A DNA stretch of 25,724 nucleotides from a virus. Taxonomy: Duplodnaviria; Heunggongvirae; Uroviricota; Caudoviricetes. Below, in pieces: positions 2,889 through 25,610 of the stretch (positions are counted from its first letter, which is position 1; every line of letters starts with the position of its first letter). The notes under the pieces are model-generated. The model was not told the DNA's origin. It made no database searches and worked only from the letters and a program-made list of their open reading frames with translations. A program made the translations under genes and the position numbers. The stretch is taken from IMG/VR virus record IMGVR_UViG_2778261058_000001; one strand, written 5' to 3'.

Positions 2889-3228
2889 GAGATACCGTAA
2901 AAGTCAGGGGTTCAAAAAAATCTTCGGTGTGGGCGCTAATCAGCAGGCGACCAGAAAGCGGGGTTTCTTCTGTCACACTGACCGTGCCGGGTGTGATGCG
3001 CTCATCATCTTCAATCAGCAGTGTCATCTGCATCATGATGTCGGCACGAAGCGTCGGGCTTTTTTCAGCCAGCAGGCGCGTTGCCAGTCCGCTTTCAATG
3101 ATGGCGTGCTGGCAGTCCTGGGCAATACTTTCCCTGTTGTTGCATAACACCGGCTCACTGGCGCTGTTCAGCGTGAGATTGCGGCCGGTGATGAGCAAAT
3201 CAATGTAAAGCGGTTTATCAGTATGCAT
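2878..3228 (-). CDS. small baseplate protein in the gpW position (116 aa)
   Basis: Track ORF 2878..3366 trimmed to the ATG at 3228..3226, which overlaps the tape-measure stop (ATGCATACTGA, out of frame). Size and position match P2 gpW (115 aa), but I see no clear GP25/W motif, so the function is positional only. Confidence 0.4.
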   Translation of the reverse strand: MHTDKPLYIDLLITGRNLTLNSASEPVLCNNRESIAQDCQHAIIESGLATRLLAEKSPTLRADIMMQMTLLIEDDERITPGTVSVTEETPLSGRLLISAHTEDFFEPLTFTVSLDD

Positions 3229-6610: not shown

Positions 6611-7066
6611 TCACCCCATCAGTCCGCGCACGTCGTTCTCTGAGAGAACGGGCACGCCGTTGATACGCACAAAGTCAGGGCTTGCCACCACGTACTTGAT
6701 TTTGTGCGTGGTCAGATCTGCGCTCTCGGTGTCAATGCTTAACAGGCCGGAAAGCATCAGCTCACAACCGAAGGCTTCAACGCGGATTTCTTCGCTTCCC
6801 GTATTGGCGTAAAACACAAAATCCATTGGCGGCAGATCGCGCCACGATCCCGCCTGAGCAGCCACTTCCCCGAGCTGGTTAAAGCTGCGGGTACTCATTT
6901 CGATTTCACCTTCGGCACTGACAGGGCCGCGCAGTTTGCCGTCAGGGATGCCACGGGTTTTGGCAACGGCGCTTTCATCGCTGATGTCCAGTGAGATGCT
7001 TTTCACATGGATATCCGTTCCACCGATAAAGGTGTCAAACGCCATGCCGTTAATGCGGGTCGTCAT
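6611..7066 (-). CDS. tail tube protein
   Basis: 151-aa ORF directly after the sheath gene (ATGA overlap at 7063..7066); size and position are typical of contractile-tail tube proteins. Confidence 0.7.
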   Translation of the reverse strand: MTTRINGMAFDTFIGGTDIHVKSISLDISDESAVAKTRGIPDGKLRGPVSAEGEIEMSTRSFNQLGEVAAQAGSWRDLPPMDFVFYANTGSEEIRVEAFGCELMLSGLLSIDTESADLTTHKIKYVVASPDFVRINGVPVLSENDVRGLMG

Positions 7067-8211
7067 GCGTTTTCCTCCAGAGATTTATCCAGCTGAATGC
7101 CCACTTTGATGGTTTTAGGGCAGGCGTAAGGGCGGACGACAATGCTGATGCTGACCGTCTTTTCGTCCTGCCAGGTGATAACCACGTCGCCTTTCTGAGG
7201 CGATTTCACTTCGCCCGGAAACGTGATGCCGTTAATTTGCATGGATTTCGCCATGGCACGCAATGGGCGGGCAAACAGCGTTTCATGTGCGGCAATGCTG
7301 CCCGGCGTGCTGTTCAGTGAGCGATCGGCAATTTTGGGGATGGCCATCAGCCGCACGCGGCGCGCCACCTTATCAGCAATGCGGACATGCTCAATGACGT
7401 TGTAGTCCCCGCCTTCCACCTCAAGTGTTACACCGTCAGCCCAGTAAAGGCCGTCATAGTCGGCATACCACATGGGCACGCTGTAGCGGGCGGTTGCCAG
7501 TGCCTGCAGAGTGTCGAGATCAATTGCCTGCCCTGCGCTGTCTTTCGGGCGTTCCGTGGTCTTCAGTGCGGACAGCGCCCCGGTTGCCACACGTGCCGGA
7601 CTGTCAGCAATGGTGACGGCGCTGTTACACAGGCGACCGGCAAGAACGCCCGGTTCAAATCCAAAAATCTCCGGAACCAGCATGACCTGCGGGGCTGCAA
7701 TGCCTTTCTGTAGTTCGGTCAGTTTGGCAACGTATTCCGCCCAGGTTTTACTGTTGTCGTTGGCGGCGATGGTCAGGATGAACCAGATGCGGCGCTGATA
7801 TTTATTGATGATGGTCTGACGTAACGCCTGTATGGCGTTGATGTCATCCTTCGTGCTGACCGGCTCGGTGATCACCACGCCTTCAACTGAAACAGTTTCC
7901 TGAGCCGCCAGTATGGCGTTCTGCCATACCTGGCAGGCTGGCGTTGCTTCTTTGCCTTTGCCGGCTTCCGGCAGAACGGCAACATAGAAAAAGGCATTCT
8001 GTCCGGCATTGGTCAGTGCAGACTGAAGGAAGTTCTTCAGCGGGCTGGCGTTCTTTCCCAGTAGCTCATCCAGATCGCTGTTGGCATTAACCGGCAGAAC
8101 CTCACCTTTGTTGTTTTGTGCATTGCCCACAAACAGCAGCGTATTTTCCACGCCGTCCGGCGAGCTACTGAACGTGTTGTACTGTTCAATTGTGACAGAT
8201 GGCCAGGTCAT
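7063..8211 (-). CDS. tail sheath protein
   Basis: Track ORF 7063..8343 trimmed to the ATG at 8211..8209 (MTWPSVTIEQ...), which has a GGAGA ribosome-binding site and avoids overlap with the upstream gene. About 382 aa, directly upstream of the tube gene. Confidence 0.75.
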   Translation of the reverse strand: MTWPSVTIEQYNTFSSSPDGVENTLLFVGNAQNNKGEVLPVNANSDLDELLGKNASPLKNFLQSALTNAGQNAFFYVAVLPEAGKGKEATPACQVWQNAILAAQETVSVEGVVITEPVSTKDDINAIQALRQTIINKYQRRIWFILTIAANDNSKTWAEYVAKLTELQKGIAAPQVMLVPEIFGFEPGVLAGRLCNSAVTIADSPARVATGALSALKTTERPKDSAGQAIDLDTLQALATARYSVPMWYADYDGLYWADGVTLEVEGGDYNVIEHVRIADKVARRVRLMAIPKIADRSLNSTPGSIAAHETLFARPLRAMAKSMQINGITFPGEVKSPQKGDVVITWQDEKTVSISIVVRPYACPKTIKVGIQLDKSLEENA

Positions 8212-8230
8212 AATTTGTCTCCTGATTTTG

Positions 8231-8944
8231 TTATCTCGTGCCGCCGTAATGCAGGCTGCGCAGCTGCGCTTCCAGAATGCGGGCAAATTCAGCGTTACTG
8301 GCTCCCAGAAATGCGCGGGAGGGAATTTTGATTTCCCATACACGTTTTTTCTGCTCGCCTTTCAGAATGCTGATCACCAGCCCGGCCTGCGCCATACTCA
8401 TGTTTTCCATAATCCATTTCAGGGAAGGTTTTCTGTATCCCCTGCGTCCGGTTTTTTTGCTGGCCGCGCCGACGGGGGCGCGAAAGCCCAGAGAAAGAAG
8501 GCGTTCTGCCTGCCGTCGTGTGGCGGGACGGGTGCGCATGGCTTCGCTGTCCCGGCGTTTTGTGGCGCGGCCTTTGATGGTTGCGCCGTGCTGTTGCACC
8601 CACGCAACTGCCCCACCATGAGAGCCGGTGTTGTAATCCCCTTTTTTGAAGAAAAGGCGGACACTTTTCCCGCTGCCGTCAACCCTGATGGCCAGCAGTT
8701 TCGGCAGTCCCAGCAGCATTTTGTTTTTATACCTGCCGCTGGCTTTATCCGGTCTTTTTCGTGGTGCCCAGGCTGCCCCCTCCGGTGTTCGCTGTGCTTT
8801 CACATTGCGTCGTGCAGCCGGTATCAGGCCGTATTTCGCAATGCGAACCAACAGCTTTCTGGCCTTTGCCGGCGGAAGTTCTGCCTCTCTGATGGCGCGA
8901 CGAACCTGCCGGAGTTGTGACTCGTTAATCACGGGGCGCGTCAT
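8231..8944 (-). CDS. virion morphogenesis / tail completion protein, P2 gpS-like
   Basis: 237-aa basic protein between the R-like gene and the sheath gene; resembles the phage virion morphogenesis family by eye; ATGA overlap with the upstream gene at 8941..8944. Confidence 0.6.
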   Translation of the reverse strand: MTRPVINESQLRQVRRAIREAELPPAKARKLLVRIAKYGLIPAARRNVKAQRTPEGAAWAPRKRPDKASGRYKNKMLLGLPKLLAIRVDGSGKSVRLFFKKGDYNTGSHGGAVAWVQQHGATIKGRATKRRDSEAMRTRPATRRQAERLLSLGFRAPVGAASKKTGRRGYRKPSLKWIMENMSMAQAGLVISILKGEQKKRVWEIKIPSRAFLGASNAEFARILEAQLRSLHYGGTR

Positions 8945-12863: not shown

Positions 12864-14651
12864 ATGGCGTATTCTGATGAGGTGATTGCTGCTGCAAAAT
12901 CGCTCTATCTGAAAAGGCACACACCAAAAGAAATACAAAAGAAACTCGGACTGAACAGCCCGCGAATTGTTTATTACTGGGCGACAAAGTTTGAGTGGTA
13001 CACGCAGCTCAATACGGAAGGCGTGGAAGATGTTATCGCCCGGCGTCTCGCTGTACTGGCGGAGCGTGACCATAAAACGCCGGAAGAGCACGATGAACTC
13101 GACCGCCTGATTGGTCATCACGTCAAACTAATGTCGGTCAGAAACAAGCACACGGAACGAATGGCTGAGATTGCGCGAATGGGAGTGGACATCCCCCAGC
13201 CTGGCCGTTATGGAAAAGAAGAACGCGGAGAAAAAGGTGCAGGGAAGAAAGAGCGTCCCCGCAAAACTAATGACGTTTCCGGACTGACTGCTGAAAGTTT
13301 TGAGCCGTTTACGAAGAAGTTGTTTGCTTATCAGTTGCGCCTGCGTGAAAACAAATTCCGCCGTGTACGCAACCTGCTTAAATCCCGCCAGATTGGGGCG
13401 ACGTATTACTTCGCGTTTGAGGCATTTGAAGATGCAGTATTAACCGGCGACACGCAGATATTTTTATCGGCATCAAAACGTCAGGCCGAAGTGTTCCGTA
13501 CTTATATTGTAAAAATTGCACAAACAGAGTTTGGCATTCCCATTAAAGGCAATCCGGTTAAGTTAAGTAATCTGGCTGAACTGTATTTTCTGGCGACCAA
13601 CAGTAACACAGCGCAGTCAAACAGCGGCCACCTGTATATTGATGAATACCTGTGGATCCCCGGTTTTCGCCGTCTCAATGAAGTGGCATCAGGGATGGCC
13701 ACCCATAAACACTGGCGCATTACCTATTTCTCCACGCCGTCATCCAAAACACACCAGGGTTACCCGTTCTGGTCTGGCGATGAATGGCGCAAAGGCGATC
13801 CGAAACGAAAAGGGGTTGAGTTTCCGTCCTTTGATGAGCTGCGCGATGGTGGGCGTGAATGTCCGGATGGTCAGTGGCGCTATGTGGTTACGCTGGAAGA
13901 TGCCATTGCCGGCGGCTTTAACCTTGCTGACATCAACGAGCTGCGCGAGCGATACAACGAAACAGCGTTCAATATGCTGTTTATGTGTGTGTTTGTGGAT
14001 GACAAAGAGAGCGTCTTTAAATTCGATGATCTTGTGCGCTGTGGTGTGGATGTCAGTACGTGGGAGGATTTTCACCCGGAAGAGCCCATGCCATTTGGAA
14101 ACCGTGAAGTGTGGGGTGGCTTTGACCCTGCACGCTCCGGCGATAACGCCACGTTTGTGGTGCTGGCACCGCCGCTGGTTGCGGCAGAACGATTCCGCGT
14201 GCTGGAAAAACACCACTGGCGCAGCATGTCATTCCAGTTTATGGCAGAGCGTATCCGCAGCATTAAGGCACGCTATAACATGACGTTTATCGGCATTGAC
14301 GTCACCGGTCTTGGCTACGGTGTCTTTGAGCTGGTTCAGGGATTTGCCCGCCGTGAAACAGTGGCCATTCATTACAGCGTGGAATCCAAAAACCGCCTGG
14401 TGATGAAGATGCTGGATCTGATTTACGCCAACCGTATTGAGTGGGATGAAGAAGCCACGGATATTCCGGCATCGTTCCTGGCCATTCGTCAGGAATCCAC
14501 CAACAGCGGCAATAAAGTCACTTTCACCGCCGAACGTAGCGAAGAAACCGGGCACGCTGACATCTTCTTTGCCATAGCTCATGCCGCAAGTAATGAACCC
14601 CTGAACTATAAGCACAAGCGCAAATCAACATGGATCCTGTCAGATGAGTAA
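12864..14651 (+). CDS. P: terminase large (ATPase) subunit, P2 gpP-like
   Basis: 595-aa ORF with AGGTGAGG ribosome-binding site, divergent from O and followed by the portal gene with an 8-nt overlap, which is the P2 Q/P arrangement. Confidence 0.85.
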   Translation: MAYSDEVIAAAKSLYLKRHTPKEIQKKLGLNSPRIVYYWATKFEWYTQLNTEGVEDVIARRLAVLAERDHKTPEEHDELDRLIGHHVKLMSVRNKHTERMAEIARMGVDIPQPGRYGKEERGEKGAGKKERPRKTNDVSGLTAESFEPFTKKLFAYQLRLRENKFRRVRNLLKSRQIGATYYFAFEAFEDAVLTGDTQIFLSASKRQAEVFRTYIVKIAQTEFGIPIKGNPVKLSNLAELYFLATNSNTAQSNSGHLYIDEYLWIPGFRRLNEVASGMATHKHWRITYFSTPSSKTHQGYPFWSGDEWRKGDPKRKGVEFPSFDELRDGGRECPDGQWRYVVTLEDAIAGGFNLADINELRERYNETAFNMLFMCVFVDDKESVFKFDDLVRCGVDVSTWEDFHPEEPMPFGNREVWGGFDPARSGDNATFVVLAPPLVAAERFRVLEKHHWRSMSFQFMAERIRSIKARYNMTFIGIDVTGLGYGVFELVQGFARRETVAIHYSVESKNRLVMKMLDLIYANRIEWDEEATDIPASFLAIRQESTNSGNKVTFTAERSEETGHADIFFAIAHAASNEPLNYKHKRKSTWILSDE

Positions 14652-15678
14652 AAAGAAAAAATACCCCGTGTTACACGATGGCGTGGCAAAAAAAACAGCC
14701 AGCAAAATGACGTTTATTGAATTTGGTGACCCGGAACCGGTCGCTGCATGGGGCTGTTATTACGGCTCGCTCTGGGATGGCTATAACGGCTGGTACACGC
14801 CGCCCATTGAGCGCATGGATCTCGCCATGTTGTCCAATATCGCACCGTATCACGGCGCGGTATTGCGTGCGCGCGTCAATATGATCATGCAGGGTTTTCG
14901 GGGTGGTGGTGGTATGACACACGCCGCCATGGCGGCAGCAGTAACCAATCTGCTGATATTCGGGGATATGGGGTTGCTTAAAGTGCGCAATGGCTTCGGT
15001 CGAGTGGTGCGCCTGCATACGTTACCTTCTCTGTACCTGCGGCGTAACAACGAGGGTGGCACGGTGATTGTGCAGGCGGCACTGGAAGATCTCGTTTACC
15101 CGCCAGGCGAAGTGGTGTTCGTGGCCATTTATGACCCGCAACAGCAGGTTTACGGTGTCCCGGATTATATTCACGGGATGGAATCCGCCATGCTGAATGT
15201 GGATGCCACCCGCTTTCGCCGCAAGTATTACAAGAACGGCGCACATCTTGGTTATATCCTGTATTCCACTGACCCGGACATGGATCCCGAGCTCGAGGCG
15301 GAATTCCGTAAAAAGATAGAGGCGTCAAAAGGGGCGGGCAATTTTAAATCCATGTTTATCAATATACCTGGCGGAGACAAAGAAGGCGTTAAGGTGATCC
15401 CTATCGGGGATTCAGGCACAAAAGATGAGTTCCTGAATATAAAAACCATCAGTGCCCAGGATCAGCTCGTTGCGCACCGCTTTCCACCCGGGCTTGCCGG
15501 CATCATTCCCGCAAATACGGCCGGGCTTGGTGATCCGCTGAAATCCCGAGAGGCATATTACAGAGATGAGGTTATTCCGATGCGCCGTCTGATTATGGAG
15601 GGGATCAACAGCGACCCGGATATCAGACGGCTGGGGCAGGTGGAATTTATTCTTGAATTTAACGAATCCACGGAGTGA
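14644..15678 (+). CDS. Q: portal protein, P2 gpQ-like
   Basis: 344 aa, the same length as P2 Q. Starts MSKKKKYP; segment RFRRKYYKNGAHLGYILYSTDPD matches P2 Q (LFRRKYYENGAHAGYIMYVTD) from memory. Confidence 0.85.
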   Translation: MSKKKKYPVLHDGVAKKTASKMTFIEFGDPEPVAAWGCYYGSLWDGYNGWYTPPIERMDLAMLSNIAPYHGAVLRARVNMIMQGFRGGGGMTHAAMAAAVTNLLIFGDMGLLKVRNGFGRVVRLHTLPSLYLRRNNEGGTVIVQAALEDLVYPPGEVVFVAIYDPQQQVYGVPDYIHGMESAMLNVDATRFRRKYYKNGAHLGYILYSTDPDMDPELEAEFRKKIEASKGAGNFKSMFINIPGGDKEGVKVIPIGDSGTKDEFLNIKTISAQDQLVAHRFPPGLAGIIPANTAGLGDPLKSREAYYRDEVIPMRRLIMEGINSDPDIRRLGQVEFILEFNESTE

Positions 15679-17250: not shown

Positions 17251-17565
17251 TTATTCTGGAAAAAACGCCTGAATATTCTTTTTCACCTGCTGCATATGGG
17301 GGGCGCTGTCTGCTGCTGGTTGCGCCGGTTTTTCAGGCTGCACTGGTAGCGGTGGCATCCGTATTTCGTCTTCTGACCATTCTGCCAGCGAATACGCCAA
17401 CGCGGGGGTGCGTTTTATAAGAGCCAGTCCGGCCAGAAAAGCCGCGCGTTGTGCGCGGCTGCGTTCGGAGGCTGGCAGGCTGTCGAGGTAATTGCACGCC
17501 TCCCGTTCGCTCTTGACGACGGCGGGCTTCAGATAGAAACTTATCCGTCTGGTTGGTGTCGTCAT
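17251..17565 (-). CDS. parR: plasmid partition centromere-binding protein ParR (StbB)
   Basis: Track ORF 17251..17694 trimmed to the ATG at 17565..17563 with an AAGGAG ribosome-binding site (105 aa). ISFYLKP...CNYLDSLPASERSRAQRAAFLAGLAL parallels R1 ParR (IAFKLNP...CDTLDSIPQGERSRLNRAALTAGLAL) from memory; immediately downstream of parM. Confidence 0.8.
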   Translation of the reverse strand: MTTPTRRISFYLKPAVVKSEREACNYLDSLPASERSRAQRAAFLAGLALIKRTPALAYSLAEWSEDEIRMPPLPVQPEKPAQPAADSAPHMQQVKKNIQAFFPE

Positions 17566-17569
17566 TGGT

Positions 17570-18529
17570 TTACTCCTTGTCCATTGCGTACAGCCCATTA
17601 ACCAGAGCAAACTGTGGCACCCCGTCCGCGATGAAAGTCGCATTAACTCCGCAGGCTTCGCGGATAGCGGGTGCCACAATCTCCGCTCCTCCACCTACAA
17701 CCATCACCCGCCCGTAACCCGAAAAACCCGCCAGCGCGCGGATCACGCGTTGTTTCAGTGTTTCCTCCTTTTCACGAATAACTGCCATCAGGCTGGCGTA
17801 ATGTGCGTTATTGTGGATGTGCTGGCGCAGCCAAGCTTCATCGTGGCGATGTTCGATAATGGTATTAGCGATGTGGTGACTGGTACGCATACCGTTGGTG
17901 GCCATCACCGACAGCACGGCATCGGCCATCAGAGAAACGCCTACGTGTGGATCGCAAAACACCTGGCTGATACCTGCCAGTTGTCCCTGAACCTTTGCCA
18001 CATCCAGCGTGGTTCCGCCCAAATCCACAATCAGCAGGGATTCAAACTGACTCATGTCAGCCAGTGCCTTAAAGCCAGCCGGAATGGATTCAGGCATAAC
18101 CCGTACGTTGCGGATAGTGAATGCCTCACTGTTCTGATACTCCACCGGGCGCATAACGTTCGCTTTTTTGCGGTTGATGTTGGTCATATCCGGCTGGGCG
18201 TTTGTGTCGAAATACTCGCTCAGTGGCAGGGTGACAACCACATCCACTTCCTGTGGTGTGATACCTGATTTGACCAGCGCGTGATGAATGGCAATGACAT
18301 TCACATCGCTGTACTGGTATTGCGTGTCGGTCGTCTGGACAAAGCGATCGCTGACCGGATCAAAACCATAGCGCACGCCATCAAGCATGTAGTTTGCGGG
18401 CTGCGTGCCACCGAACGGCGCAGACCATTCCGACTTGAAGCTGTTCGGGCTGATGGCGTTGCGGCGTTCGCCGTTCTCAGTCCATGCCAGCTTGATGTTG
18501 GTGGAGCCGTCGTCGATACAAATTTTCAT
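17570..18529 (-). CDS. parM: actin-like plasmid segregation ATPase ParM (StbA)
   Basis: 319 aa. MKICIDDGSTNIKLAW, ISPNSFK, YSDVNVIAIHHAL, NAQPDMTNINRKKAN, VMPESIPAG, LIVDLGGTTLDV, VMVVGGGAE and LVNGLYAM all match remembered R1 ParM motifs along the full length. Confidence 0.9.
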   Translation of the reverse strand: MKICIDDGSTNIKLAWTENGERRNAISPNSFKSEWSAPFGGTQPANYMLDGVRYGFDPVSDRFVQTTDTQYQYSDVNVIAIHHALVKSGITPQEVDVVVTLPLSEYFDTNAQPDMTNINRKKANVMRPVEYQNSEAFTIRNVRVMPESIPAGFKALADMSQFESLLIVDLGGTTLDVAKVQGQLAGISQVFCDPHVGVSLMADAVLSVMATNGMRTSHHIANTIIEHRHDEAWLRQHIHNNAHYASLMAVIREKEETLKQRVIRALAGFSGYGRVMVVGGGAEIVAPAIREACGVNATFIADGVPQFALVNGLYAMDKE

Positions 18530-18560
18530 GTCGATTTTCCTTATGTTGGTTAATTAACCG

Positions 18561-18673
18561 TTTACGGGATTCTGAAATCCCGCTTTCGCCTGTTTTGTGC
18601 GCGCTTCATATATCGCGGCGCGTTTTTTGCTCATTTACGGGATTTGTAAATCCCGTTTTTGTCTGTTTTTTGT
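18561..18673. repeat. two ~40-bp direct repeats, each with a 6-bp hairpin, upstream of parM (parC-like or origin-like)
   Basis: Copy 1 at 18561-18598 (TTTACGGGATTCTGAAATCCCGCTTTCGCCTGTTTTGT); copy 2 at 18634-18673 (TTTACGGGATTTGTAAATCCCGTTTTTGTCTGTTTTTTGT). Each contains CGGGAT-N6-ATCCCG; copies are 73 bp apart. A 12-bp palindrome GGTTAATTAACC lies at 18548-18559. Confidence 0.5.
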
Positions 18674-21431
18674 TTCCACTGGTCAGGCCACCCCGCAGCA
18701 GGTTTGCTTTGCGGCGGGCGCGTTCAGTGGTTTCACTGATTCTCTGTGCGTGCTCTGCGTCACGGATGGCGCGCAGCATGTCAGAAAGCACGGTAACGGG
18801 TGTTTTCATGGTGTTCTGGTCTTGCTGAAGTGTGGATGCCAGGCGTGCGGCGGCTTCGGGGTCTGATGCCCCCAGCTGTTCCAGATAGCTGGCGACCGGG
18901 TTATGACGGATCTCCGTGCTGCTTACGCCGTGATTGCGGCTCAGGCGCTGCCAGAGCTGCGTGATTCGGCTGTCCGGGCGGGTATCCGGTTTGCGTACAA
19001 TTTCAAATCCCTGCGGTGCAATGATGCTGCCGTCAACGTACAGGCTGCCGCCCCGTAACAGGTGCTGCATCTGCTGTTCACCGATATGCAGGCCGAGAGA
19101 TTCAGCAGACTCCCGCCATTCTTTAGCGAGTAACTCGTGGTTATCAGGCAAAGGCTGTGGCTGTTTGCGGCTCTGTGTCCAGTTCTGCATTTCATCGCTG
19201 CTGTTTTTTGCCTGTTTGTCACGAAGCGAACGCATCAGCGCCCGGCGTTCGTGCCGTTTCAGTGAGCGCATCCATTCATTTACTTCAACGCCGTCAGGAA
19301 GCTGCGGCCACGGTGCTGGCCGTTCTTCCGGCTGTTCTGTCCCGTTGTTGTCCGTTTCCTGTACACGGGGACAGTTATTGCCACGAGTCCAAGGGGCGGC
19401 AGGGCCGCCCTGAAGGTCAAAACCATTTTCGCGGGTGCTGTCTTCCGCTTCCGGTTTACGTCTTACCAGCTTCCAGTTATCCGGATGCGTGCACACACGG
19501 GAGGATTCCCCGATGAGTGGTGACCAGATCCCGTAAATCTGTACACTCTGCTCGCCGTAATCGTTCAGCTCATCTGCGAGGTCGTAGGCGGTGCGAATCA
19601 GGTAGTCTTTGCGTGGAACAAGTACGCCGCCCTGTTTCTCTATGTAGGTGGCAAAACATCCGGCATCAGCGGCAGCGAGTACCGCATCCATTGCGTCATT
19701 TTCCAGACGTTGCGGTCCCTGTGGGTTACGTGCCATCTGACAGGCAAGGCGGCGCAGTTCACGCCACACCTGACGGGAGGGGATGCCAAAGAACTGGAAC
19801 TGGCGGACCCGGTGAAGGCGCGCCCAGCCGATGGCGCGTTCCACGCTTTCTGCCATCGTCTTTCCTGATTCGTCGTCGATGCGCGGTTTGCCTGTTTTCG
19901 GGTCAATGCCATCCACGGCGCGGCTGTCCAGGTTCTTTCCGATGTAGGTGGCGATGTAGCTGGTCGGCGTACCTTTCGAACCGTCGACGTACTCTGCCTT
20001 AAAGCGCGGAGTTATGTCATTGCCCAGCTCGTGGCGGTCTTCGCGAATGGCAATATCACGGGTGATGTCCACGATGCTGTCGATTTCTTCAGGATGTGCA
20101 AAGACCATCATGTGCCAGTGCACGGTGCCGTCATGGTGAGGCTCCACCGTGCGAATGCCATACCAGCGCAGGCCGTCGCGGTTCAGTTTTTTGCGGACCG
20201 CCTTAAAAAACGTGTTAACCAGGTAATCGCTGGAATCGCGCATGGTGGCCCCGTTCCATTTGGGGTTCGGATGACCGTTCTCCGTTGTTGCGTGGTACTT
20301 CGAAGGGGTAGTGACAGTCAGAAACACCGCTTTGTCGCCACGGGCTTCGGCCAGAAGTTCCAGCCCCTTCATGGTGGCCATCATTTCTGCCTTACGGTGA
20401 ACCGGGTTACTTACTCCCGCGTAATACACTGTCTCGAGATCAATCGTGAACCCGTCTTCGTTTTCCAGCATGAAACTTTTCAGGAAATCGCGTGTTTTCT
20501 CGCGCTGTGCGCGAAACTCGCTTAACGCGTCCTGGCTCAGATAAGGCGATGTTTTTCTGGAAACCAGACAGGCGGCGCGGAGTTGTTCTTCTCTCCACTC
20601 GCAACGTAACAGCCACAGTTTGCGTTTCCACCAGTCCGCACAGGTCAGGCGAAGGATTGCGCCCGGCAGCAGTTCCGTATCCGGTTCGCTCTTGTTCAGG
20701 GCTTCGTAATGTGGCGGCATGATGTGCAGGCGTAATGCGATACGAGCCAGCATCCGGTAAGCCTTCAACATTACATCCATGGTCAGCTCGCCATCTCTGG
20801 CACCAAAGCCATCGCAGAGTGTTTCGAAGGTGCTGCTGAACATCGCCGCGGTCATGGTGGCCAGCGTCTGTATCTGGTGCTTGTTGAGCTGCGGCAGGTA
20901 AAGCAAATCGTCCAGGCGTTCGCGCCCGGCAAGGGAGCGATAACCCGGTGTCAGCCAGCGATGATCGGTGCGGTCCAGACGTTCGAATATTTTGCGCAGG
21001 GTCCCACGCGCATAGCGTTCTGCCTGCCTAGCGTTTTTTCCTTTCTGACGATCGGCTTCCTGTTTTTTGCGCAGGAAGGAGAGGTGGCGGCTCAGTGGTT
21101 CACGCAGATAAACAGGTAGTGCCTTTAGTGTGGCAAAGGCACGGGCTACTGGGTCTTGTTCTGTTGCCCGGCGCTTACTGATGATGCTCTGTGCCAGCTT
21201 TTCACGCTGTCCGGCTTCCTCAAGGGATGCCATGAGTTTTTTACCCATGGCGGATTGTGCGAAAAAGGCTTCTTCCTTCGCTTCCTGTTCTTCCCGTGCC
21301 CTTTTGTCTGCCTCAAGGTAGTAACGGATGGCGCGTTGCAGGTCGGTTTCAGTTTCCTGCCTGCGCTCCGTAAATCTGGCCGGATCAATGGCTGGCCGTG
21401 GTTCATTCCAGCTCCATGCAAACTCGCTCAT
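18606..21431 (-). CDS. A: rolling-circle replication initiator (HUH endonuclease), P2 gpA-like
   Basis: Track ORF 18606..21458 trimmed to the ATG at 21431..21429, which overlaps the upstream stop (ATGA); 941 aa. HUH motif VHWHMMVF and tyrosine motif TSYIATYIGKN (Y-x3-Y then K) as in P2 and phiX174 gene A proteins. Convergent with Q/P as in P2. Confidence 0.8.
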   Translation of the reverse strand: MSEFAWSWNEPRPAIDPARFTERRQETETDLQRAIRYYLEADKRAREEQEAKEEAFFAQSAMGKKLMASLEEAGQREKLAQSIISKRRATEQDPVARAFATLKALPVYLREPLSRHLSFLRKKQEADRQKGKNARQAERYARGTLRKIFERLDRTDHRWLTPGYRSLAGRERLDDLLYLPQLNKHQIQTLATMTAAMFSSTFETLCDGFGARDGELTMDVMLKAYRMLARIALRLHIMPPHYEALNKSEPDTELLPGAILRLTCADWWKRKLWLLRCEWREEQLRAACLVSRKTSPYLSQDALSEFRAQREKTRDFLKSFMLENEDGFTIDLETVYYAGVSNPVHRKAEMMATMKGLELLAEARGDKAVFLTVTTPSKYHATTENGHPNPKWNGATMRDSSDYLVNTFFKAVRKKLNRDGLRWYGIRTVEPHHDGTVHWHMMVFAHPEEIDSIVDITRDIAIREDRHELGNDITPRFKAEYVDGSKGTPTSYIATYIGKNLDSRAVDGIDPKTGKPRIDDESGKTMAESVERAIGWARLHRVRQFQFFGIPSRQVWRELRRLACQMARNPQGPQRLENDAMDAVLAAADAGCFATYIEKQGGVLVPRKDYLIRTAYDLADELNDYGEQSVQIYGIWSPLIGESSRVCTHPDNWKLVRRKPEAEDSTRENGFDLQGGPAAPWTRGNNCPRVQETDNNGTEQPEERPAPWPQLPDGVEVNEWMRSLKRHERRALMRSLRDKQAKNSSDEMQNWTQSRKQPQPLPDNHELLAKEWRESAESLGLHIGEQQMQHLLRGGSLYVDGSIIAPQGFEIVRKPDTRPDSRITQLWQRLSRNHGVSSTEIRHNPVASYLEQLGASDPEAAARLASTLQQDQNTMKTPVTVLSDMLRAIRDAEHAQRISETTERARRKANLLRGGLTSGNKKQTKTGFTNPVNEQKTRRDI

Positions 21432-21817
21432 GGCTGGTATCCCGTCACGCGCTGCCACTCCTGCGAGAAGATGGCGGAAAGGCGGTTAAATTCAGCGGTG
21501 TATTCACTCAGCGAGGCACACCCGCCAGCAGTGCGATGCGCCAGCATTGCCGCGAATACGGAGGCCGGGGAGTCGTAATACGCCAGCAGTGATTCGCCGT
21601 GTGGTGTCAGGCAGTGCAACGCCAGCCCGTGTGGTGTGAAGTCCACGCGGTAGCAGTCGTCTACTGTGAAATAAAGGGTGTCCGCATTCTCCGGTTTTGT
21701 AGTGCGTGCTCTGTTGTCACGACCACGGATGTAAAGATCAAATAATCCCTGAAGAACGGGAGCCAGACGGGTGTCCTGTGTGCGCACCCATCTTGTGAAG
21801 TCATGAGCGTCAATCAT
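21428..21817 (-). CDS. hypothetical early protein upstream of gene A (positional analogue of P2 B region)
   Basis: 129-aa ORF translationally coupled to A (ATGA); no family recognised. Confidence 0.4.
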   Translation of the reverse strand: MIDAHDFTRWVRTQDTRLAPVLQGLFDLYIRGRDNRARTTKPENADTLYFTVDDCYRVDFTPHGLALHCLTPHGESLLAYYDSPASVFAAMLAHRTAGGCASLSEYTAEFNRLSAIFSQEWQRVTGYQP

Positions 21818-21889
21818 GCTGCAATTCTCTTTACTACAGATGTGCGAAGGCCTCCCGCCGCAAGGTGCAGGAAAGGCCCGGAACAGGAA

Positions 21890-22120
21890 TTAATGGAGTT
21901 TGTTTTGCTGCTGGATGAGCTGCTGAAGCTCGCGCAGATCATCCGCCAGATAGCTGAAAACAGCGGATGAATAGAGGTTTGAAAGTTCGCAGCTACGCTC
22001 ATGCAGCATATTGATGTGCATGATTTTAGCGACGCGGAATGCGCGGGAAAGTCTGCGGTTGATTTCAGTCTGGATGTGACGACGCTCCGCGATAGCGCGG
22101 TGCTGTTTGCGGTTTGCCAT
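21890..22120 (-). CDS. small basic protein, first gene of the early operon (76 aa)
   Basis: ATG at 22120..22118 with a GAGG ribosome-binding site; basic N-terminus (MANRKQHRAIAERRHIQ...). Function unknown; occupies the position of cox-type early regulators. Confidence 0.4.
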   Translation of the reverse strand: MANRKQHRAIAERRHIQTEINRRLSRAFRVAKIMHINMLHERSCELSNLYSSAVFSYLADDLRELQQLIQQQNKLH

Positions 22121-22130
22121 GGTGTGGCCT

Positions 22131-22349
22131 CGTGTATAGTAAGTTTTGAAAACTCACCATCCAGAGGTGGAAAACTCGGGGTGGTGAGACGTACAGGGTT
22201 TCCACAACCGGCTATACACGAACCCGGCCCGACCGAAGTCGGCCCCATACGCCCCACCATAATTCTGACGCGAAAAAGACGTGGCGATACGGTACGCACA
22301 AAAAAACCGCTGGCGCGGTTGTGCGCGTGTATAGTCAGCGGGGTGGAAA
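22131..22349. promoter_or_regulatory. array of three bipartite repeat elements (CGTGTATAG ... GTGGAAA), middle copy inverted
   Basis: E1: CGTGTATAG 22131-22139 with GTGGAAA 22167-22173. E2 (inverted): TTTCCAC 22199-22205 with CTATACACG 22212-22220. E3: CGTGTATAG 22326-22334 with GTGGAAA 22343-22349. E1 overlaps the 5' leader and ribosome-binding site of the first early gene. Confidence 0.55.
22296..22320 (-). terminator. rho-independent terminator, minus strand
   Basis: Minus-strand RNA reads AACCGC-GCCA-GCGGUU followed by UUUUUUUGUG (plus strand 22296-22320: ACAAAAAAACCGCTGGCGCGGTT). Short GC-rich 6-bp stem with a 7-U tract. Confidence 0.5.
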
Positions 22350-22456
22350 TCCCGGCACCCGTTTTATGAGGTGCAGCGGAAATGTAACCTGACTGATTGC
22401 GGCATGGCAAGCGGTTTTTTTGTGAGAACGGCATACTAAAAAATCCTGATGCTGCT

Positions 22457-22481
22457 CCGGCCAGCGGTTTCCACTGGCCGG
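22457..22481 (-). terminator. hairpin 7 nt downstream of the SPFH gene stop
   Basis: CCGGCCAG / CGGTTTCCA / CTGGCCGG gives an 8-bp stem; on the minus-strand RNA the U-run (AUUUUUUAG) begins about 11 nt after the stem, so it is an imperfect terminator. Confidence 0.4.
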
Positions 22482-22487
22482 GTTTAA

Positions 22488-23318
22488 TTACTTCACCGGA
22501 ACAAACGGAACAGCGGTATTACTGGTCATGTATTGCGGCAGCGTGCCGTTCCATTTGTTGATAGCTTCCAGCTCCATAACGCCGGGGTTCTGGCGCAGAG
22601 CTTCACCGCGCAAACGAATGGCGTCGGCTTCAGCCTGGGCTTTTGTGCGAATGGCATCAGCCTGTCCGGCTGCTTCTGCGCGTAGCATGTTGGCTTCTGC
22701 TTCGCGCTGCTTGACTTCCTGTTCGCGTTGCAGAGTTTTCTGGTTTGCCGTGACTTTGGCATTAATGCTGTCGATAACGGTTGGTGGGTATTCCGGTTTA
22801 CCGACATAAGAGAGGCTCATTACCTGAATGCCGATAGGTGTCATTTCTGCCTGAATGTCTTTAAGTGCTGAATCCAGCAGTTCAGACTTGCCGCCGTCGA
22901 TAAATTTATCGGTGGTCATTTTGCTGGCCAGTCGGTTGAGTGCGTCGGCGATCTTCTGGCGCAGGTCAGTGTCGGTAATGTCATCCACGCCTTTGCGGTA
23001 GGTCTGAAACACTGTAGTAACTTTGGATGGATCAACCTTGTAGGCCACACCGATGTGATAGCCGATGGTTGTGCCGTCACTCATCTGAAAGCTGAACGGC
23101 TCATCGTAGGTCTTCATTTGTTTGAAGGTTGGGAAGATGTAAACCTCTGTATTCCAGCCTGTCCAGTAGCGGCCAACGCCAACTACTTCGCCGACGCCTT
23201 TGTCGTCGCCCAGCTTGTTGACTTTGATGCCCACATTACCTGGCTCAACGCGATCGCAACCAACCAGCAGGATGGCGGCAAAAAGCGGGAGAATCTGAAA
23301 GAGTTTGAATTTCTTCAT
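22488..23318 (-). CDS. SPFH (band 7 / stomatin-prohibitin) domain lipoprotein
   Basis: 276 aa. N-terminal lipoprotein signal with lipobox LLVGC; central SPFH-like region; C-terminal Ala/Glu/Arg-rich coiled segment (REQEVKQREAEANMLRAEAAGQADAIR...). Confidence 0.7.
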   Translation of the reverse strand: MKKFKLFQILPLFAAILLVGCDRVEPGNVGIKVNKLGDDKGVGEVVGVGRYWTGWNTEVYIFPTFKQMKTYDEPFSFQMSDGTTIGYHIGVAYKVDPSKVTTVFQTYRKGVDDITDTDLRQKIADALNRLASKMTTDKFIDGGKSELLDSALKDIQAEMTPIGIQVMSLSYVGKPEYPPTVIDSINAKVTANQKTLQREQEVKQREAEANMLRAEAAGQADAIRTKAQAEADAIRLRGEALRQNPGVMELEAINKWNGTLPQYMTSNTAVPFVPVK

Positions 23319-23518
23319 TGTTTGATTTCCTTGATGTACTTACTGAAAAGGCGAACAACGCCTGCCGGGTACAGCATGGCAATGAAAATGCCCAGCAATA
23401 CCAGGAAGGAGCTGTCTGATGAAATCATTCGGGGGAGTAGTCCTGCATACAGAATGAGAGAGACGAGGACGCATACCAGCGCCCACATGTATGCGCGAAA
23501 CCAGGTCTTTTTGTTCAT
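23315..23518 (-). CDS. small two-helix membrane protein (67 aa) coupled to the SPFH gene
   Basis: Two hydrophobic helices (WALVCVLVSLILYAGLL; FLVLLGIFIAMLYPAGVV); stop overlaps the SPFH start (ATGA). Confidence 0.55.
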   Translation of the reverse strand: MNKKTWFRAYMWALVCVLVSLILYAGLLPRMISSDSSFLVLLGIFIAMLYPAGVVRLFSKYIKEIKQ

Positions 23519-23529
23519 ATCGCGGTCCT

Positions 23530-23829
23530 TTACTGGTTAAGGAAAAAATCGAAAACGTTGTCGATGCGTTGCAGCAGCTCCTGCTGCATTGCTTCCGGCG
23601 TTTCTGATTCACCTGGTGACTCCAGCGTCGCGCAAAAATCCTTGATTTCATGATGGAGCGTCAGACGAATGGCAGGAGCCGTGGTTCTGGCGTGCTCCAG
23701 CTCATCCAACAGTGCCAGCACAGCAGACGGCGAGAGCATTGCGCGAAACGCCAGTAATTTTTGATGCGTTGCCATTCGTTGCAGGGCAAATGCCAGTTCG
23801 CGTAGCTTCTGGTGGTTGATGGTGCTCAT
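23530..23829 (-). CDS. hypothetical protein (99 aa)
   Basis: ORF on the minus-strand operon; start overlaps the upstream stop (ATGA); no family recognised. Confidence 0.4.
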   Translation of the reverse strand: MSTINHQKLRELAFALQRMATHQKLLAFRAMLSPSAVLALLDELEHARTTAPAIRLTLHHEIKDFCATLESPGESETPEAMQQELLQRIDNVFDFFLNQ

Positions 23830-24092
23830 GCTCTGGCTTCCTTCAGTAGCTGGTTAAACATGTGAGTAAGTGGATTGCTACACCCGAACGGCATCGGGTT
23901 TACGTGGTAAGAAGCCTGGCCTCCTGTTTTGCGAGCGCGACCACCTGTGCTGCGGTTTGTTCTGATGACTAAGCCGCCGCGCCAAAGTCGGCGTAACTCA
24001 GCATTAATGGCTGTGGTTGGGGTATTCAGTGCTGCGGCGATTTCTCCACCGCTACACCCCGGATTGGCGGCGATATAGTCCAGAATGGTCAT
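23826..24092 (-). CDS. putative winged-helix DNA-binding protein (88 aa)
   Basis: Track ORF 23826..24152 trimmed to the ATG at 24092..24090 with an AGGAG ribosome-binding site. MTILDYIAANPGCSGGEIAAALNTPTTAINAELRRLWRGGLVIR looks like a winged helix-turn-helix. Confidence 0.45.
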   Translation of the reverse strand: MTILDYIAANPGCSGGEIAAALNTPTTAINAELRRLWRGGLVIRTNRSTGGRARKTGGQASYHVNPMPFGCSNPLTHMFNQLLKEARA

Positions 24093-24117
24093 CTTCGTGG
24101 CTCCTGTACCCTGATCG

Positions 24118-24318
24118 TTAGTTGCCTGCTTTTTTGCGCAGAACCTGTACATACATCACGTTAGTAGCCGTGTAATGCTTCCCGTTCTTAAGCCAGATGT
24201 GATGAATACCGGGCTCGCTGCGGGAGGGGGCTGTTCTGTCGTGATCGATCAGGCTGTCTTCCACGTCGTATTCAATGCCGCCCGATGTGAAATGTACGGT
24301 TAAGAATGATTTGATCAT
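24118..24318 (-). CDS. hypothetical protein (66 aa)
   Basis: Track ORF 24118..24342 trimmed to the ATG at 24318..24316, which has an AAGGAG ribosome-binding site. Confidence 0.35.
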   Translation of the reverse strand: MIKSFLTVHFTSGGIEYDVEDSLIDHDRTAPSRSEPGIHHIWLKNGKHYTATNVMYVQVLRKKAGN

Positions 24319-24346
24319 CGCTGTGCTCCTTTGGTTTTTCATGGGG

Positions 24347-24760
24347 TTATGCGTTAAATGGGGAAGAGGTTGCTATGTCGATGAACGCAATCCGGTCGCG
24401 TCTGATGATGTGTACATCACTCAGCGGTTCGCTCTCATTTGCCGGAACCGCAGCAATCATGTAGCTCCCCTGCAGGTCTGCCAGGATGATGTATTCCTGT
24501 TGTGGGTTGTTGATGATAAAGACCCGTTTCCCAATGCTGGGGAAAGAAGTGTTGGTGCCGGCTAATTGAGCTTTGAGAGTGCTGATTTCGTTGTTCAGGC
24601 TTTCAATAAGTCCAGCAGCACTTGCGGTGACTTCTGCTATAGCCATTGAACGAACATAAAAGGGAATAAGCCCTTCTCTCAGTGCCTGCCTGGCTAATGC
24701 ATCTTCCATTTCTGATATTTTTTTCAGTTTGGTGATGGTGACTGTATCTTTAGCGTTCAT
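24347..24760 (-). CDS. hypothetical protein (137 aa)
   Basis: ORF in the same minus-strand gene train; no family recognised. Confidence 0.4.
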   Translation of the reverse strand: MNAKDTVTITKLKKISEMEDALARQALREGLIPFYVRSMAIAEVTASAAGLIESLNNEISTLKAQLAGTNTSFPSIGKRVFIINNPQQEYIILADLQGSYMIAAVPANESEPLSDVHIIRRDRIAFIDIATSSPFNA

Positions 24761-24852
24761 TTTGTATCCTCGTTATTTGTGTGTGCGAATACCTCCGCGA
24801 GTGCGGATTGTTTTCACGTTTTCTTGTTTAATGTGGTGTTTTATTTGTGCTG

Positions 24853-24966
24853 TTATTCGTCAGAGAAAAAACGCTCAATCTTTTTCACTGAATGAATAAT
24901 TCGCATAATCCCAATAGCGCAGGCCACCGAAATAATCAGAACAAGCCATGAGATAAATATGCTCAT
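24853..24966 (-). CDS. possible 37-aa single-helix membrane peptide
   Basis: ATG at 24966..24964 overlaps the stop of the upstream 80-aa gene (ATGA). Translation MSIFISWLVLIISVACAIGIMRIIHSVKKIERFFSDE: one hydrophobic helix and a basic tail. Below the ORF-track size cutoff. Confidence 0.3.
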   Translation of the reverse strand: MSIFISWLVLIISVACAIGIMRIIHSVKKIERFFSDE

Positions 24967-25205
24967 GCGATATTCCCCAGGTTATACGGTTCAATGTGGT
25001 CCCCGTTTTCTGCGGCGCAAACGAGTATGGAAAGCTCGTCGAGCGCGTCCGGATCGTCAATGTAAAAAGCCGTGTCGTATATACTCTTGATGGCCCTGGT
25101 CAATGACTCTTGAGCTGCGCGTTCAGCATGAGTGCCTGATGCGCTTAAGCGAAAATGAAAGCGCTCAAGTGCTTTATTGACGAGAGTTTTATATTCTTTA
25201 TCCAT
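24963..25205 (-). CDS. hypothetical protein (80 aa)
   Basis: ORF in the minus-strand gene train; no family recognised. Confidence 0.4.
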   Translation of the reverse strand: MDKEYKTLVNKALERFHFRLSASGTHAERAAQESLTRAIKSIYDTAFYIDDPDALDELSILVCAAENGDHIEPYNLGNIA

Positions 25206-25216
25206 CGCAACGCCCT

Positions 25217-25495
25217 TTAATCTGCCTTCTGGATTTCTGCTTCTGAATCCATGCAGATAATTTCGATATATGGTTCATCGCCATTAACCTGACGTGCTTT
25301 TTCAGCTTCGCTAATAATTTCGCGTACGGTCTGGTACGGAAGTTCCACAAACAATCGCGTGCCGTTCAGATAAAGGTAAGTAGCCACATCTTTTGCTGCC
25401 GGGACTACAGCATCAATAGCCGATGCGCGTAATAACAGTTCACCGCGAAAATCAATAAAACGGATAAATACACCTTGTGCATGCTCTTTGGTCAT
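25217..25495 (-). CDS. hypothetical protein (92 aa)
   Basis: Track ORF 25217..25645 trimmed to the ATG at 25495..25493 with an AGGTG ribosome-binding site; the longer form would overlap the transposase 3' end. Confidence 0.35.
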   Translation of the reverse strand: MTKEHAQGVFIRFIDFRGELLLRASAIDAVVPAAKDVATYLYLNGTRLFVELPYQTVREIISEAEKARQVNGDEPYIEIICMDSEAEIQKAD

Positions 25496-25610
25496 AAAGC
25501 ACCTGTTATAAATCAGCCTGTTTAATAAAACTTTGCCCGCGAAGCAGACGATCAACCGTGCGTAGTGCTGAACCGCCCCGGTTTTCCTGGAGAGTGTTTT
25601 ATCTGTGAAC

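Follow-up and report, generated by a model that had tools for sequence, protein, structure and literature searches.

A probable immI-type antisense-RNA module ahead of an epsilon-like gene and replication gene A in a P88-like prophage of the P2 family

The antisense RNAs of the c4/CI type belong to RNA families that are curated in Rfam, and their three-site logic and mechanism are textbook knowledge for P1 and P4. The sequence record of P1 lays out the system in the order: promoters P1c4 and P2c4, a1 (48255-61), b1 (48269-76), C4 RNA (c4, 48343-419), a2 (48423-29), b2 (48452-59) and icd (from 48470). In Salmonella, the isrK - STnc1160/orf45 - anrP locus of Gifsy-1 is described by Hershko-Shalev et al. 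2016 (PMC4825925). The read-through isrK transcript of Gifsy-1 is translationally silent, and IsrK provided in trans lifts the translation of anrP 139-fold; a stable processed RNA, STnc1160, is found downstream of IsrK, and SeqA of P4 is named as a structural homologue of IsrK (PMC4825925). Here, an array of three complementary repeats is examined in the IMG/VR virus record IMGVR_UViG_2778261058_000001, a Caudoviricetes sequence of 25,724 nucleotides (nt) that is referred to, at its full length, as the window. The array, which extends to the ribosome-binding site of a gene for a 76-amino-acid (aa) protein, is very probably an immI-type antisense-RNA module of a P2-family (P88-like, Xuanwuvirus) prophage of Escherichia coli, homologous to P1/P7 c4-icd-ant, P4 seqA-CI-seqC and Gifsy-1 isrK-STnc1160-anrP. 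Each element of the P1 order is matched in the window.

Elements of the module

A first-pass annotation, made from the letters alone, had described three copies of a bipartite element with the middle copy inverted, and this arrangement is seen directly in the sequence and with a repeat finder. The upstream copy (E3) is read as CGTGTATAG (22326-22334) and GTGGAAA (22343-22349). The middle, inverted copy (E2) is, in minus-strand letters, GTGGAAA (22199-22205) and CGTGTATAG followed by T (22212-22221), while the downstream copy (E1) is, in plus-strand letters, TCGTGTATAG (22130-22139) and GTGGAAA (22167-22173). The array is far beyond chance: CGTGTATAG has exactly three matches in the 25.7-kb window, all within the array, where dinucleotide shuffles lead one to expect 0.06, and three or more copies are found in 0 of 100 shuffles. 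GTGGAAA is less specific when taken alone (14 matches in the window vs 3.8 expected). The copies are not uniform, as the description of a repeated bipartite element might suggest, since the two halves are separated by 8 nt in E3, by 6 nt in E2 and by 27 nt in E1.

An Rfam scan of the whole window at curated thresholds yields exactly two matches, both covering their full-length models and both on the minus strand, as are all parts of the module. The upstream match is an IsrK-like small RNA of 75 nt (22300..22374; RF01394 isrK, 63.5 bits against a threshold of 50, E 1.2e-11, model positions 1-77 of 77), and the downstream match is a c4/CI-type antisense RNA (22177..22264; RF01695 C4, 77.3 bits against a threshold of 45, E 8.6e-14, model positions 1-87 of 87). 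Transcription would start from a sigma-70-like promoter (22381..22410, minus strand) composed of TTGCCA, an 18-nt spacer and TACATT, with a predicted start at about 22374 that coincides with the 5' end of the isrK match. This promoter-like site is the sole one in the interval 21700-22700 and ends 7 nt before the isrK 5' end. All 14 lineages compared have a -35/-10 pair that is equally far from the 5' end of isrK, and in P4 this is the position of the early-left promoter, known as PLE.

An A7 tract (CACAAAAAAACCGCTTGCC on the minus strand) at 22407-22434 lies just upstream of the -35 hexamer and is kept in PhiSM and Entero_P88(23) despite differing sequence further upstream. The tract also repeats the isrK terminator arm in inverted orientation, and may be an UP-element-like feature.

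In the Rfam alignment, the IsrK-like RNA is laid out as a hairpin, a second hairpin with a1 in its loop, a single-stranded b1 and an intrinsic terminator, the last of which was also called independently of Rfam (stem 22320-22305 and U-run 22306-22300, minus strand). The a1 element (RNA UUUCCAC, 22343..22349, minus strand) forms 7 of 7 pairs with the a' element of c4, and b1 (RNA CUAUACACG, 22326..22334, minus strand), in the single-stranded stretch before the terminator, forms 9 of 9 Watson-Crick pairs with b'. This RNA is the counterpart of the seqA region of P4 and of the a1/b1 region of P1. The c4-a1b1 motif (RF03163) has no match in the window at its gathering score, nor at E values up to 10; in the window, its role is filled by the isrK-type leader. 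A small RNA ending at the terminator near 22296 had been proposed as something to look for; this RNA is the IsrK-like one, which carries E3 (a1/b1). The antisense RNA is instead a separate and presumably processed RNA of about 79 nt, located downstream of the isrK terminator.

Within c4, b' (UCGUGUAUAG, 22212..22221, minus strand) lies in the loop of the second hairpin in the Rfam alignment and pairs with both b1 and b2, while a' (GUGGAAA, 22199..22205, minus strand) lies in the single-stranded junction in the same alignment and is complementary at all 7 positions to a1 as well as to a2. The predicted mature c4 extends over 22258..22180 (79 nt), as the alignment with P1 carries over the annotated ends of the P1 RNA; the conserved c4 ends, 5' AUUAUGG and 3' CCACC, line up with those of mature P1 c4.

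The downstream copy, E1, is the a2/b2 target and directly follows the C4 match, with its b2 half over the Shine-Dalgarno sequence. The a2 element (UUUCCAC, 22173..22167) is presented in the loop of a hairpin (22153..22188, minus strand) that is found as an inverted repeat, in a local fold of 22190..22115 and in the minimum-energy fold of the precursor. The b2 element (CUAUACACGAG, 22129..22139, minus strand), the target of b', forms 10 exact pairs and one G:U pair and overlaps the Shine-Dalgarno GAGG (22131-22128). The 10-nt exact complement that had been reported to reach into the Shine-Dalgarno region is, thus, real: UCGUGUAUAG (22221..22212) and CUAUACACGA (22139..22130) match over 10 nt, or over 11 pairs when one G:U is counted. 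The minus-strand RNA at this copy reads CUAUACACGAGGCCACACCAUG; therefore, the pairing spans the G-A-G of GAGG, a motif that is separated by 7 nt from the AUG at 22120. The a2 of the window begins 6 nt past the predicted 3' end of c4, and its b2 stops 8 nt short of the AUG.

RNA structure, pairing and specificity

Folding of the minus-strand transcript and covariation in homologues had been suggested as checks on an RNA switch, and both come out in its favor. On its own, the c4 of the window adopts the fold of the family (-43.6 kcal/mol, z -4.7, 71% of the ensemble). This fold consists of a long closing stem around two hairpins and, in an alignment of 14 homologues that includes the window, P1 and P4, has 99.2% of its cells paired. 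Of its 27 stem pairs, 15 have changed on both sides, a level of covariation that is matched by none of 500 shuffles, and controls in which the structure was slid along the alignment are about 40% paired. In the fold of the 275-nt precursor, b' pairs with b2 in cis and the Shine-Dalgarno sequence is buried (z -3.9). The 5' arm of the a2-presenting hairpin (22188..22153) is also the 3' strand of the c4 closing stem; therefore, the unprocessed transcript has an alternative silent structure, as described for Gifsy-1 (PMC4825925).

A leader in which b' pairs either with b2 or with b1 could in principle be the whole system, acting only in cis with neither a separate trans-acting RNA nor immunity. 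The minimum-energy fold of the 275-nt leader, with b' and b2 paired in one molecule, fits this proposal, as does the full-length transcript of Gifsy-1, which is silent in cis (PMC4825925); however, the c4 domain is very stable alone, and the P1 and P4 members of the family are processed RNAs that act in trans. The alignment of the AUUAUGG and CCACC termini with the mature ends of P1 c4 speaks likewise for a processed RNA, and the presence of many specificities is a prediction of trans-acting immunity. As cis and trans action can coexist, the cis pairing does not compete with trans action, and a module confined to cis is considered quite unlikely.

The pairing of the three sites was compared in the window and 18 further loci, which represent P88-like phages, lambdoid Stx and Salmonella phages, a Yersinia phage, P4 and P1, and all of which have a C4 match. 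Among these 19 loci, 14 distinct a'/b' combinations are found. In every locus, all 7 positions of a' find a pairing partner in a1 and likewise in a2 (the a2 of the Yersinia phage, UUGGAAC, was read directly from the sequence and not placed by script), and b' pairs with both b1 and b2 over 7-13 nt. The cognate duplexes between loops and targets have a mean energy of -25.1 kcal/mol compared to -14.9 kcal/mol for non-cognate duplexes, and in 13 of 14 cases no non-cognate target pairs better than the cognate one. The letters of a' and b' would define an immunity specificity. P88-like phages with flanks that are about 85-94% identical hold three such specificities: (i) that of the window, with a'/b' GUGGAAA/CGUGUAUAG, (ii) that of PhiSM, with GUUCCAA/CUUUGGUUG, and (iii) that of PhiR44_2, P88_4B11 and Entero_P88(23), with CUGCGAA/CUUGUGUAG. 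The a and b halves also reassort, as ST64B has its a' in common with Stx2a_WGPS2 but its b' in common with Stx2c_PV98-693. In an IMG/VR scan, the exact b'-a' segment of the window is found in only two loci, both P88-like; thus, neither satellites nor lambdoid phages in that database show any sign of the window specificity.

When reverse-complemented, the GUGGAAA of the window a' becomes UUUCCAC, which is exactly the a' found in Stx2a_WGPS2, ST64B and PhiR40_1. In a cell with both phage types, the c4 junction of one phage would complement the c4 of the other and not its target.

The two outer copies are not always identical: read by eye from the pairing table, b1 and b2 differ at six positions in five specificity classes. 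Every one of these differences lies opposite a G or U of b', such that a G:C or A:U pair becomes G:U and the pair is kept. Differences that keep a wobble pair bear the mark of pairing between RNAs rather than of DNA recognition by a protein. This bears on the other explanation that the first-pass annotation had offered, in which the three copies are DNA operators for a repressor encoded elsewhere and the resemblance to RNA systems is incidental. A DNA-binding protein has no reason to keep G:U pairing between copies that differ from each other, and half-sites that are 8, 6 and 27 nt apart misfit a single binding geometry. The middle copy, moreover, falls exactly in the unpaired regions of a strongly covarying RNA, and none of the copies overlaps the promoter hexamers. 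While operators would account for a bipartite sequence that occurs three times close to a promoter and a gene start, and for the joint change of all three copies between phages, as with a co-evolving repressor, the variable spacing and the wobble-preserving differences leave this explanation unsupported and hardly credible. The antisense-RNA module, by comparison, has its elements, family membership, structure and coordinated variation established by computation.

Proposed regulation, phage context and annotation

How the module is transcribed, processed and used for repression is extrapolated from the homologues, as is an anti-repressor activity for the 76-aa protein. On this model, the promoter at 22410-22381 would start minus-strand transcription at about 22374, and most transcripts would end at the intrinsic terminator (about 22300) to give the 75-nt IsrK-like RNA, which would display a1 in a hairpin loop and b1 as a single strand. 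Transcripts that read through the terminator would carry c4 (22258..22180), which, by homology, may be excised by RNase P and 3' trimming. The b' loop and a' junction of c4 are predicted to pair with a2 and b2, in cis while the transcript is unprocessed and in trans after processing. With b2 covered at the Shine-Dalgarno sequence, the epsilon-like anti-repressor candidate would remain untranslated, and polarity would then curtail transcription into the following 129-aa gene and the replication gene A. The a1/b1 copy may compete for the c4 loops, both within the leader and as the free IsrK-like RNA, and abundant IsrK-like RNA would free the target, as shown for IsrK in Salmonella.

Several points weigh against this interpretation. 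The promoter fits only 9 of 12 consensus positions. When c4 is co-folded in nested mode with either the target or the IsrK-like RNA, zero intermolecular pairs result, an outcome that is uninformative because nested folding cannot represent loop-loop contacts; for the same reason, the energy of trans pairing was estimated solely from isolated loop segments. The roles assigned to a1 and b1 differ among the literatures of P1, P4 and Gifsy-1, and the decoy step is the least secure part of the proposal. The Pfam match of the 76-aa protein is barely over its threshold (29.5 vs 27 bits), and the gene for the phage C repressor, the presumed target of this protein, is absent from the window.

The first gene of the controlled unit (21890..22120, minus strand) encodes the 76-aa protein, which is a homologue of P4 epsilon (helper derepression) by its match to PF25738 Derepression (29.5 bits, threshold 27) and by an alignment of 66 aa in which 29% of residues are identical to P4 epsilon (E 1e-8); RefSeq labels it 'derepression protein'. 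PF25738 is a family centered on P4 epsilon, which itself matches it with 170 bits and matches only that family. By homology, the 76-aa epsilon-like protein is a candidate anti-repressor. The second gene (21428..21817, minus strand) encodes a 129-aa protein that similarity searches assign to phrog_3237; it does not resemble P4 ORF151 and falls into none of the Pfam or NCBIfam families. The last gene of the unit considered is the replication gene A (18606..21458, minus strand), which encodes a rolling-circle endonuclease of 950 aa (PF05840 Phage_GPA, 432 bits) and lies 0.7 kb downstream of the RNA module in the same orientation. In other lineages, the RNA cassette precedes Rha-type regulators, an annotated antirepressor (PhiR12_4) or icd-ant. 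The cassette, therefore, looks like a portable control unit for such anti-repressor-type functions.

Across its early region (17413-25569), the window shares 87-93% identity with phage P88 (Xuanwuvirus, Peduoviridae), which is inducible by mitomycin (PMC5285337). The left 17 kb form a P2-type structural module without blastn similarity to P88, and the window is, therefore, a prophage mosaic. The structural genes include those for the portal (14644-15678), the large terminase (12864-14651), the sheath (7063-8343) and the tape measure (3218-5314), as well as the scaffold, major head and baseplate. In P88, the C/Cox switch is located upstream and the module lies within the early region, between the gene for an SPFH lipoprotein and gene A. 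The array had been placed upstream of the early operon; it is instead found inside the early region, where it has a promoter of its own ahead of the epsilon-like gene and gene A. No LexA boxes are found near the module, and the seven matches in the window equal the chance expectation.

Directly upstream of the RNA module is the SPFH/Band-7 lipoprotein gene (22488-23318, minus strand; PF01145, 108 bits). P88 and locus L021 also have this gene, whereas PhiR44_2, P88_4B11 and Entero_P88(23) lack it and have a small gene directly next to the promoter; a moron-type insertion is the likely origin of the SPFH gene. A hairpin that follows the SPFH gene (22457-22481) reads CCGGCCAGUGGAAACCGCUGGCCGG on the minus-strand RNA and has GUGGAAA, the sequence of a', in and next to its loop. 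Within it, 22460-22470 is an 11-nt exact complement of 22304-22314, where the isrK terminator has its 3' arm and U-tract. This hairpin could be due to chance, or could link read-through from upstream early genes to isrK termination.

An open reading frame (ORF) of 206 aa (21814..22434, minus strand) spans the module, and a further explanation is that the region encodes a protein of the 'Ash' family and that the repeats are coding features. The ORF is open across the entire region and matches PF10554 Phage_ASH over the RNAs (22123-22386, minus strand; 24 bits, E 5.5e-5), but the match falls short of the Pfam threshold of 26. The ORF also runs over the epsilon-like gene in a different frame, and it is not called by RefSeq. 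The frame is free of stops in 15 of the 19 loci, and such an ORF is annotated in several GenBank records; it is, however, broken in the other four (YpM_39, Lyz12581Vzw, P13803 and P1). In the comparison of the near-identical Ss-VASD and P13803, a 1-nt change in the length of the terminator T-run is sufficient to break it. The compensatory double substitutions at stem positions are likewise those of an RNA. Of three ORFs scanned, the best match to PF10554 is the obsolete 'cI' ORF of P4, which lies over the CI RNA (L018, 8168-8584, minus strand; 59.7 bits); that of ST64B, an N-terminal extension of Sb41, lies on isrK and C4 (L012, 689-977, plus strand; 42.8 bits). A coding origin of the repeats is, all told, extremely improbable, and PF10554 appears to be the translation of the isrK, C4 and a2/b2 RNA region and not a protein family. 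The profile is used for epsilon ('Ash') in the detection of P4-like satellites (PMC8628076), and an 'Ash domain' of unknown function is described in the Rha proteins of Stx phages (PMC8951638). The 'Ash' domain, which serves as a marker in the literature, thus appears to consist of translated RNA genes.

In several phage records, long coding sequences (CDSs) of GenBank, named 'Rha protein', 'transcriptional regulator', 'peptidase' or 'hypothetical protein', cross isrK and C4 (347-1504 in L012, 346-1497 in L008, 341-1492 in L010, 341-1486 in L005, 670-1287 in L003 and 503-1120 in L017). In ST64B, an AUG located 9 nt after b2 (about position 947 of L012) is in frame with the annotated CDS, which suggests, for this phage only, that the first 200 or so annotated codons are an N-terminal over-extension.

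Sequence with at least 80% identity to the module occurs in 1168 of 5426 complete Escherichia coli genomes. The module is unannotated in RefSeq, where only 'derepression protein' or 'hypothetical protein' appear, and a literature search found no description of it in papers on P88, PhiSM or Xuanwuvirus. What sets the present case apart is a copy, found in P88-like phages of the P2 family, that would act directly on an epsilon-like gene followed by gene A. Genome annotation overlooks this regulatory element, whose function is assigned by homology. Its presence implies a second, RNA-based layer of immunity in P88-like phages, set before the epsilon-type anti-repressor candidate and gene A, and this layer would have at least three interchangeable specificities. 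The loop sequences could, in turn, be used to type heteroimmunity groups, and the front of the P4 left operon would be linked to a cassette that is borne by helper-type phages.

Comparison with P1, P4 and Gifsy-1

The first-pass annotation had likened the array to the seqA/seqB/seqC logic of P4 and the c4 immunity of P1, and the above-threshold C4 and isrK matches and the P1-like layout agree with such an RNA switch. The c4 of P1 also belongs to RF01695, with a score of 68.8 bits compared to 77.3 bits in the window. Similarly to P1 and P7, the promoter, a1, b1, c4, a2, b2 and start codon follow each other in the same order, b2 lies on the ribosome-binding site, and the 7-nt a and 8-11-nt b elements are found in unpaired regions of the RNA. 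The gaps are of like size: c4 and a2 are separated by 3 nt and b2 and icd by 10 nt in P1, while the corresponding distances are 6 nt and 8 nt in the window. The operon under control in P1 supplies a function directed against the prophage repressor, and the 76-aa protein is, by homology, the candidate for such a role in the window.

The two systems differ in their upstream part, in their cargo and in their carrier. The upstream part of P1 matches c4-a1b1 (RF03163, 51 bits), a family that only P1 matched, whereas that of the window matches isrK (RF01394). Unlike P1, the window has an intrinsic terminator of its own between a1/b1 and c4, and no C1-type operator is evident at its promoter. The cargo of P1 is icd and ant, whereas that of the window is the 76-aa epsilon-like protein, the 129-aa protein and gene A. 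As to the carrier, P1 is a plasmid prophage, whereas the window belongs to a P2-family myovirus.

In P4-type immunity, the outcome is that transcription terminates prematurely. The CI RNA of P4 is a member of RF01695 (74.9 bits), and the seqA region of P4 matches isrK (60.8 bits). P4 further shares with the window a promoter at the same distance, an operon in which epsilon (PF25738) is followed by a replication gene, and a CI-type RNA between two complementary leader sites of the replication operon, with seqC ending on the Shine-Dalgarno sequence and AUG. By contrast, the distance from the start of isrK to CI is 185 nt in P4 and 110 nt in the window. The epsilon gene of P4 starts about 250 nt downstream of CI, past the stretch of the obsolete 'cI' ORF, whereas the epsilon-like gene of the window is the direct target. 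The replication gene is the alpha primase in P4 and gene A in the window. P4 is a satellite, of the type marked by the alpha primase and sid/psu/delta, without structural genes; the window carries genes for the portal, terminase, scaffold, capsid, sheath, tape measure and baseplate and is not a P4-like satellite. The loops of P4 (a' UUCUCAC and b' CCUGUGAA) differ from those of the window; therefore, no cross-immunity is predicted between the two.

It is conceivable, though rather unlikely, that the module is the helper-phage counterpart of the immunity and derepression cassette of P4, composed of a PLE-like promoter, seqA/IsrK, CI/c4, seqC and epsilon. If so, P2-family phages and P4-like satellites would draw from one pool of RNA specificities; a helper c4 could silence satellites whose loops match its own, or, conversely, the anti-repressor and gene A of a helper could be silenced by a satellite. 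The IsrK-like RNA of this P88-like phage would then be an anti-antisense decoy that sets prophage induction.

The likeness to Gifsy-1 includes an isrK-family RNA, an anti-repressor-like cargo and a short RNA that is complementary to a downstream RNA, together with two features that are predicted for the window: terminator read-through into a long transcript that is translationally silent, and a stable RNA processed from the part downstream of the isrK-type RNA. Binding of Hfq and activation in trans of the cistron that follows are known only for Gifsy-1 (PMC4825925). Gifsy-1 is lambdoid, with another type of anti-repressor as cargo. In the window, b2 is directly on the Shine-Dalgarno sequence. 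The activation of Gifsy-1 is attributed to a translated ORF of 45 codons that is coupled to anrP (PMC4825925). In the window, the frame from the corresponding AUG (22260) has 149 codons and runs across the whole epsilon-like gene. Therefore, coupling of the Gifsy-1 type is not applicable, and direct occlusion of the Shine-Dalgarno sequence, as in P1, is likelier. Because the C4 and isrK families of Rfam are shared and the order and spacing are P1-like, sequence comparison supports the module of the window as homologous, and not merely analogous, to the P1 and P4 systems.

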